From the NCBI RefSeq assembly GCF_003334355.1, contig NZ_QOWP01000002.1: 64,000 bases of DNA. One strand, given 5' to 3'. Shown piece after piece: positions 11,244-13,181 of this stretch; within the stretch, counting starts at the first letter, position 1, and every line of letters starts with the position of its first letter. The DNA is from Escherichia coli (lineage in GTDB: Bacteria > Pseudomonadota > Gammaproteobacteria > Enterobacterales > Enterobacteriaceae). Position numbers and translations under genes: made by a program. A model generated the notes under the pieces. It saw only the letters and a program-made list of their open reading frames with translations. It was not told the origin of the DNA and did no database searches.

Positions 11244-12833
11244 ATGACGCAAACTCTGTTAGCGATTGAAAATTTGTCGGTGGGTTTTCGCCATCAGCAA
11301 ACCGTACGTACAGTAGTCAATGATGTTTCACTACAGATTGAGGCTGGCGAAACGCTGGCGCTGGTGGGTGAGTCAGGTTCAGGCAAAAGCGTTACCGCGC
11401 TGTCAATTTTACGCCTGCTCCCTTCCCCGCCGGTTGAATATCTCTCCGGCGATATTCGTTTTCATGGCGAATCGCTGCTTCACGCCAGCGATCAAACGTT
11501 GCGCGGTGTACGCGGTAATAAGATCGCCATGATTTTTCAGGAACCGATGGTGTCGTTAAATCCATTGCATACCCTGGAAAAACAGCTTTATGAAGTGCTT
11601 TCACTCCACCGCGGGATGCGTCGGGAAGCGGCTCGTGGCGAAATTCTTAACTGCCTTGATCGCGTTGGTATCCGCCAGGCGGCAAAACGGCTGACAGATT
11701 ATCCGCATCAGCTCTCCGGCGGCGAACGGCAGCGGGTGATGATTGCGATGGCGCTGTTAACGCGACCGGAATTATTAATTGCCGATGAACCGACCACCGC
11801 ACTAGACGTCTCTGTCCAGGCGCAGATTTTACAGCTGTTGCGCGAACTGCAAGGCGAGCTGAATATGGGCATGCTGTTTATTACTCATAACCTCAGCATT
11901 GTCAGAAAACTGGCCCACCGCGTGGCGGTAATGCAAAACGGTCGCTGTGTCGAGCAAAATTACGCCGCTACGCTATTTGCATCACCCACTCATCCTTACA
12001 CACAAAAGCTACTCAACAGTGAACCGTCAGGCGATCCAGTGCCGTTGCCAGAACCTGCCTCAACGTTGCTGGATGTTGAACAGCTTCAGGTTGCCTTCCC
12101 CATTCGCAAAGGGATTTTGAAGCGCATTGTGGATCATAATGTGGTGGTGAAAAACATCAGTTTTACGCTACGAGCGGGTGAAACACTGGGTTTAGTGGGC
12201 GAGTCCGGTTCCGGGAAAAGTACGACGGGACTGGCGCTGCTGCGACTGATTAATTCTCAGGGCAGCATCATCTTTGACGGTCAGCCACTGCAAAATTTAA
12301 ATCGCCGCCAGCTGTTACCTATTCGTCATCGCATTCAGGTGGTATTTCAGGATCCAAACTCCTCGCTCAACCCACGACTCAACGTTTTGCAGATTATTGA
12401 GGAAGGCTTACGGGTTCACCAGCCGACGCTTTCTGCCGCACAACGCGAACAACAAGTGATAGCCGTGATGCATGAAGTGGGATTAGATCCTGAAACACGC
12501 CACCGTTATCCGGCGGAGTTCTCTGGTGGTCAGCGACAACGTATTGCGATTGCCAGGGCATTAATTCTTAAGCCCTCGCTGATCATACTTGATGAACCGA
12601 CATCATCACTCGACAAAACGGTACAGGCGCAAATATTGACGCTATTGAAATCATTGCAACAAAAGCATCAACTGGCCTATTTGTTTATCAGCCACGATTT
12701 GCACGTTGTCCGCGCGTTATGTCATCAGGTTATCATACTGCGACAAGGGGAAGTAGTGGAACAAGGACCGTGCGCGCGCGTGTTTGCCACACCGCAGCAG
12801 GAGTATACGCGTCAGCTACTGGCGTTGAGCTGA
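11244..12833 (+). CDS. yejF: Tandem-ATPase ABC subunit YejF, 529 aa
   Basis: Two Walker A motifs (GESGSGKS twice) and two LSGG signatures; ATG at 11244 gives 529 aa. Confidence 0.9.
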   Translation: MTQTLLAIENLSVGFRHQQTVRTVVNDVSLQIEAGETLALVGESGSGKSVTALSILRLLPSPPVEYLSGDIRFHGESLLHASDQTLRGVRGNKIAMIFQEPMVSLNPLHTLEKQLYEVLSLHRGMRREAARGEILNCLDRVGIRQAAKRLTDYPHQLSGGERQRVMIAMALLTRPELLIADEPTTALDVSVQAQILQLLRELQGELNMGMLFITHNLSIVRKLAHRVAVMQNGRCVEQNYAATLFASPTHPYTQKLLNSEPSGDPVPLPEPASTLLDVEQLQVAFPIRKGILKRIVDHNVVVKNISFTLRAGETLGLVGESGSGKSTTGLALLRLINSQGSIIFDGQPLQNLNRRQLLPIRHRIQVVFQDPNSSLNPRLNVLQIIEEGLRVHQPTLSAAQREQQVIAVMHEVGLDPETRHRYPAEFSGGQRQRIAIARALILKPSLIILDEPTSSLDKTVQAQILTLLKSLQQKHQLAYLFISHDLHVVRALCHQVIILRQGEVVEQGPCARVFATPQQEYTRQLLALS

Positions 12834-12836
12834 CGC

Positions 12837-13181
12837 TTAAAAAGGATTGTAGTTTGAAAAGGGTTCGGCAATTGCCACACCAAAATTTTTCAATCGGCAT
12901 GTTGCAGCAAACTCGTCCTGGCGATTTACAAACAGGCACGGCTCACCTTCACACTCCAGCACCGAACATGGAACTTCGATGTCGCTTAACGCCTGGCTTA
13001 GTTTATACATCACCGACCATGCATTATCACCATCCGGGCTAAGCAATTTAAGCGCCACCAGGCTGTTGTCACCGCACGGTCCATTTTGCGGAATCGGTTC
13101 AACCTTCGAACCTGCGAAACCAGCAGACCAGCGATAGTTCTGCGGCAGTCGATGGACGATTGAGAGTTGTAATGAAGTCAC
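12837..13181 (-). CDS. yejG: Uncharacterised protein YejG, 114 aa
   Basis: 114-aa minus-strand ORF in the expected position; stop codon 3 bp from the yejF stop. Confidence 0.8.

Follow-up and report, generated by a model that had tools for sequence, protein, structure and literature searches.

A conserved hairpin at the 3-bp junction of yejF and yejG, an ordinary overlapping convergent gene pair of Escherichia coli

Adjacent convergent units that are transcribed into each other, the convergent excludons, are common in Escherichia coli. Overlap has been reported for 276 of 370 convergent operons, over 286 nt on average (Conway et al. 2014, mBio), and yejF-yejG is one of 165 convergent excludons that ExcludonFinder names for MG1655 (Sanmartin et al. 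2025, NAR, Table 1). Mutually exclusive expression and/or processing by RNase III are traits of the class. Collision-type terminators (Ju et al. 2019; Wang et al. 2022 preprint, with ynaJ-uspE as the model) are another arrangement, where a hairpin of non-intrinsic appearance lies between convergent genes; such elements are described as Rho-independent and as poor terminators under one-sided transcription (Wang et al. 2022 preprint), and their defining feature is a pair of well-defined 3' ends. In addition, antisense read-through is suppressed by Rho, with 3' ends then cut back as far as a stable stem (Peters et al. 2012; Dar and Sorek 2018; Adams et al. 2021). Here, the boundary between yejF and yejG is compared with these systems in a 64-kb stretch of E. 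coli DNA, hereafter called the window. Taken as a whole, the pair is likely an ordinary convergent excludon, in which yejG runs antisense into yejF, Rho limits this extension, and a hairpin at the boundary may act as a pause or barrier.

In the YejABEF importer of peptides and microcin C, yejF encodes the ATP-binding subunit, and specific induction of yejG by acid has been reported in the literature. The window comes from a strain other than K-12 and is collinear with MG1655 over its first 21.2 kb, with 95 SNPs in that part, and between positions 11000 and 14800 the two differ at only four positions, none of them after 11804. Since the differences are so few, MG1655 coordinates convert exactly (window position = NC_000913.3 coordinate - 2,265,056), and published MG1655 data could be placed on the window in this way; both published Term-seq flanking strings have exact matches in it. 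Collinearity stops directly after the proL tRNA gene (window 21211 onward), so the strain has different DNA beyond that point, either an island linked to the tRNA gene or a yejO region unlike that of MG1655.

Direct reading, the ORF listing and the RefSeq annotation all place the two stop codons 3 bp apart, as the preliminary description of the locus had stated (Table 1). The yejF frame comprises 529 codons and is closed by its TGA (...agcTGAcgcTTAaaaagg), and the plus-strand tta that follows the spacer is the yejG TAA seen from the opposite strand; in context, the junction reads ...ctggcgttgagcTGAcgcTTAaaaagg... in the window. The same gene ends are found in the RefSeq annotation of E. coli ER1709 and of MG1655. 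The geometry is that of a convergent excludon, with adjacent genes on opposite strands arranged tail to tail, and the gap of 3 bp lies well under the mean of 95 nt reported for excludons in this species. As a separate observation, the UGA-C of yejF is a weak stop context (12831-12857) whose C is 94% conserved across species, and readthrough of the stop in E. coli would append eight residues (WRLKRIVV) before the next stop, encoded by variable sequence antisense to yejG.

Table 1. Features of the yejF-yejG locus in window coordinates
Feature	Position	Strand	Remarks
yejF CDS	11244-12833	+	ORF listing and RefSeq; last gene of yejABEF
22-bp p19-captured RNase III product	12085-12106	both	2-4 RPM; PMC7373196, Table S3
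Rho-dependent termination region, best coordinate	12219	-	2277275(-); PMC7815308, Supplementary file 2
yejG 3' UTR, 208 nt	12629-12836	-	Antisense to the final 205 nt of yejF; Term-seq end
Stem-loop, 6 nt before the 3' end of yejG mRNA	12635-12672	-	Tail AUUUGC
Boundary hairpin	12809-12836	.	Arms 12809-12817 and 12828-12836; 10-nt loop
yejF stop TGA	12831-12833	+	Within the 3' arm of the boundary hairpin; UGA-C context
Spacer cgc, 3 bp	12834-12836	.	Between the yejF and yejG stops
yejG CDS	12837-13181	-	114 aa; Pfam PF13989, function unknown; stop TAA 12839-12837
yejG promoter P1	13220-13235	-	Extended -10 TGtTAAAAT (13235-13227); start ~13220-13222
bcr terminator hairpin read backwards	13469-13511	+	Core 13480-13499; Term-seq 3' end 13511

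It had also been claimed that no room is left for terminators between the two genes. This is correct, as none fits into 3 bp and none of canonical form lies nearby. A scan for canonical terminators from 11800 to 14000 gave none at the junction, its sole match being a weak site inside bcr, and an Rfam search of 11000-15000 at a permissive threshold returned only a meaningless match to a eukaryotic lncRNA (E = 0.31). Inspection of the sequence after either stop for a Rho loading signature revealed weak enrichment of C over G; after the yejG stop, the C/G ratio is 1.35 in the first 150 nt and 2.1 in 12137-12236, with values below 1 between the two.

For the 5' end of yejG, SMRT-Cappable-seq reports a monocistronic unit starting at 2278276, equivalent to window 13220, and of the two starts found by primer extension, P1 (given in an older coordinate system) agrees with the same position (PMC3798280). 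The bcr-yejG spacer (13182-13513) holds at least two experimentally mapped yejG starts (P1 at ~13220 and P2 at ~13342) and a further promoter, TTGATG-17-TATCAT, at 13476-13448. The length of this spacer is fairly constant, at 314-349 bp in 72 of 78 species, and a regulatory leader that serves acid-induced yejG may be located in it.

At the other end, published Term-seq data for three growth conditions agree on 2277685 (window 12629) as a minus-strand 3' end (PMC7815308, Supplementary file 1). This end has 212,916 and 168,450 reads in LB, compared with ~23,000 for the weakest minus-strand peaks listed in the same study. The curated Term-seq lists for the three conditions (PMC7815308) leave the 50 nt around the yejF and yejG stops free of 3' ends. 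A halt of each mRNA ahead of the other gene's coding region, which would have spoken against an overlap, is thus not what the yejG message displays; it proceeds past its own stop and into yejF. It is this 3' extension that makes the pair an excludon, the class being defined by a transcript that enters the partner unit, and the mapped overlap of 208 nt is close to the reported average for E. coli.

Antisense transcription from yejG reaches deeper into yejF than its stable end. In published DirectRNA-seq data with and without BCM, bicyclomycin raises the downstream/upstream read ratio at 2277275(-) from 27/128 to 272/343 (p = 2e-10, Rho score 3.76; PMC7815308), and the read-through of the yejG extension into this region, ~600 nt inside yejF, is accordingly sensitive to the drug. 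Such behaviour is standard for Rho-suppressed antisense transcription, with which yejG shares untranslated RNA beyond the stop codon, bicyclomycin-sensitive read-through and an end just after a stem-loop. The stem-loop in question lies inside the yejF CDS, and is present in Escherichia without being maintained in other genera. It was considered as a conserved terminator embedded in yejF, and this was rejected, since it is not kept outside Escherichia. Because the structure is confined to Escherichia, the position of the yejG mRNA 3' end is probably not conserved in other genera.

For transcripts that leave yejF, the picture is more tentative. SMRT-Cappable-seq did not detect yejABEF transcripts. 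The first plus-strand 3' end listed beyond yejF is at 2278567 (window 13511; PMC7815308), past the whole of yejG and at the back of the bcr terminator, and its read counts are low (1086 and 3147). If read-through from yejF does reach 13511, it would cross all of yejG together with its promoters; a promoter-like site at 13160-13188 is a possible alternative source of this end. On the minus strand, the bcr terminator hairpin is followed by UUUGUUG; as it also marks the plus-strand end at 13511, the hairpin is used from both directions. The preliminary description held that the two transcripts must overlap in antisense at their 3' ends. This stands for yejG, with an end mapped 208 nt inside yejF and the pair catalogued as an excludon, and is plausible for yejF.

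Overlapping transcripts may form duplexes, and one low-abundance RNase III product captured by p19 maps to both strands within yejF (Table 1). It is a weak sign of a sense/antisense duplex far into the gene, and duplex reads of this kind come from most genes (PMC7373196). A published study of transcriptional interference (PMC10349824) has no entry for yejF/yejG, and our search found no published data showing that yejG and yejABEF expression are coupled by interference or duplex formation. Coupling of the two units by polymerase collision or duplex cleavage, as initially proposed, is a hypothesis that would be plausible for a pair of this class.

The overlap of yejF and yejG is thus correctly described, already known and an ordinary case of a common class. 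The one unreported detail of the pair, and a modest addition, is the conserved hairpin at the boundary, which the preliminary description had overlooked. Its arms, GCGTCAGCT (12809-12817) and AGCTGACGC (12828-12836), form a perfect 9-bp inverted repeat with six G-C pairs, which covers the yejF stop and the spacer, abuts the yejG stop and is otherwise embedded in the coding end of yejF. The RNA folds with about -16 kcal/mol on either strand, and is more stable than shuffled sequences (z = -2.8 on the plus and -5.1 on the minus strand). Perfect stems of at least 9 bp with loops of 3-12 nt occur 15 times in the window, occupying 0.6% of it, against ~2 after triplet shuffling. The majority of these 15 hairpins are at gene ends, and most of the similar ones are terminators. 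In the same window, two hairpins with perfect 12-bp stems (38380-38407 and 50209-50240) have GATAAGACGC / GCGTCTTATC arms in common and are perhaps copies of one palindromic repeat.

The GC-rich 9-bp stem, the short loop and the position at a gene end are shared by the boundary hairpin and intrinsic terminators. In contrast to these, the hairpin lacks a U-tract after the stem on both strands (plus, UUAAAAAGG; minus, GUAUACUCC), which is the case in all 80 species studied, and no 3' end maps to it; the Term-seq lists for LB and M63 include no peak at its base on either strand. It was also considered as a REP or other repeat. REP sequences have many copies per genome, whereas the junction element is a single-copy one, found at a single place per genome in 5426 E. 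coli genomes, and this possibility was ruled out.

The junction is well preserved, both within the species and across the family. The 40-mer spanning it occurs once in each of the 5426 complete E. coli genomes (5426/5426), with at least 99% identity in 5387. A YejG profile search retrieved 80 Enterobacteriaceae species, in 79 of which yejF is convergent to yejG. Of these, 72 have their stops 3 bp apart, six have a distance of 1-6 bp, and a single species has 23 bp. The distance of 3 bp in most of the 79 species indicates that the tight junction is ancestral to Enterobacteriaceae. The exception in gene order is Intestinirhabdus alba, which has kept yejG, lacks yejABEF beside it and has lost the boundary hairpin. 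In the extracted locus of this species (L035, 3001-4276), the convergent neighbour is a mepS-like NlpC/P60 gene (3710-4276, minus strand in the locus), which suggests a pdeN-yejABEF deletion.

Whether such conservation reflects function is less obvious than it may seem. One view is that the hairpin and the tight junction are functionless by-products, the arms being conserved codons that are complementary by chance (CAG-CT and AGC-TG, which have the AGCT palindrome in common), and the overlap being tolerated noise that is cleared by Rho. The exact 3-bp spacing offers no argument to the contrary. It was considered as a sign of selection and rejected after comparison with the bcr-yejG spacer (332 bp), which exists in 28 length variants among 78 species; with this much variation spread over ~330 bp, few changes are expected in a target of 3 nt, and the indel rate of this spacer is enough to account for the constant length of the junction. 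Furthermore, conserved Gln-Leu and Ser-stop codons fix six of the nine pairs, or eight if all of T-R-Q-L and S-stop is counted, covariation is limited to one pair and probably represents two or three independent events, and the stem-loop at the mapped yejG 3' end is not conserved outside Escherichia. The genome-wide suppression of antisense read-through by Rho also fits this view.

Base identity tells a different story from length. Spacer bases 1 and 2, which are non-coding, are conserved in 94% and 93% of the 72 species, whereas the major allele at 20 four-fold degenerate sites of yejF and yejG has a median frequency of 52%. The third spacer base is variable and covaries with position 12809, the synonymous third base of a Thr codon. 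This outer pair (12809/12836) is GC in 28, CG in 17, AU in 6, GU/UG in 3 and unpaired in 16 of 70 distinct sequences, so that three Watson-Crick types are represented (Kosakonia, for instance, has A at 12809 with T at 12836), and across the same 70 sequences 91% of all stem cells are paired. The apparent constraint on the spacer is therefore one of base identity and not of length. The commonest departure from the stem is CGT->CGC in the Arg codon, giving a C.A mismatch on the plus strand in a third of the species. While this would be in keeping with a by-product, every plus-strand mismatch becomes a G.U pair in the minus-strand RNA. Pairing amounts to 94.3% on the yejG-sense (minus) strand versus 89.9% on the yejF-sense (plus) strand, with median energies of -16.3 and -14.1 kcal/mol, respectively. 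Judged by these comparisons, and by the rarity of perfect 9-bp hairpins in the window, the boundary hairpin appears to be under selection, probably mainly as part of the yejG RNA, and an origin as a mere by-product is unlikely.

If the hairpin is functional, a more ambitious reading is that it works as a collision-type terminator in both directions. With the two units active, polymerases from either side would pause and meet at the hairpin, the overlap would be limited to its ~28 nt, and neither gene would be invaded. The exact position between a convergent pair, the GC-rich stem devoid of a U-tract on either strand and the conserved, covarying pairing all resemble the elements from the Liu laboratory, which are prevalent, Rho-independent, weak in one direction and more efficient at high expression; low expression of yejABEF in the mapped conditions would then explain the read-through of yejG. 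The yejF-yejG element nevertheless differs from these in being embedded in the coding end of one gene, and the defining paired 3' ends are not reported at the hairpin, in conditions where yejABEF is poorly expressed. The transcript data also point elsewhere, with the yejG end 208 nt beyond the hairpin in three conditions, no primary end listed near either stop and a Rho-dependent extension, although the Rho effect lies further downstream and has no bearing on events at the hairpin. We therefore regard a working collision terminator at this site as improbable. Its most likely role is that of a pause or barrier, in the manner of the hairpin-only elements that have been described from boundaries of convergent genes.

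Together with the published transcript maps, these comparisons suggest a model of the boundary as an ordinary excludon. Neither gene has a canonical terminator at the common boundary. As the published mapping shows, the better-expressed yejG mRNA starts at ~13220, passes its own stop and is transcribed through the hairpin over the yejF stop, which is probably not an efficient terminator. The RNA then enters yejF in antisense and acquires its stable end 208 nt past the stop, after the local stem-loop, and polymerases that travel further are halted by Rho ~600 nt inside yejF. For transcripts presumed to exit yejF, the first 3' end on the lists would be the one behind the bcr terminator (13511). 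The hairpin itself may be a pause or barrier to polymerases arriving from either side, or it may block 3' exonucleases on the yejG mRNA.

Beyond the locus, the importance of the overlap is small, as overlap is documented for most convergent operons of E. coli. Within the class, yejF-yejG is an extreme case, with a 3-bp gap and a hairpin in a coding end, and is as such a compact test bed for the model of pausing and collision at a hairpin alone. The reported acid response of yejG likewise provides a natural setting for the question of whether the YejABEF importer is expressed less when antisense read-through occurs. A bolder proposal is that the hairpin fixes the point where polymerases meet, or protects the yejG message, such that acid-induced yejG and YejABEF expression are mutually exclusive. 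We consider this unlikely; if it were true, the uncharacterised, Enterobacteriaceae-specific yejG would, besides any role of its protein, control the importer as a switch in cis.
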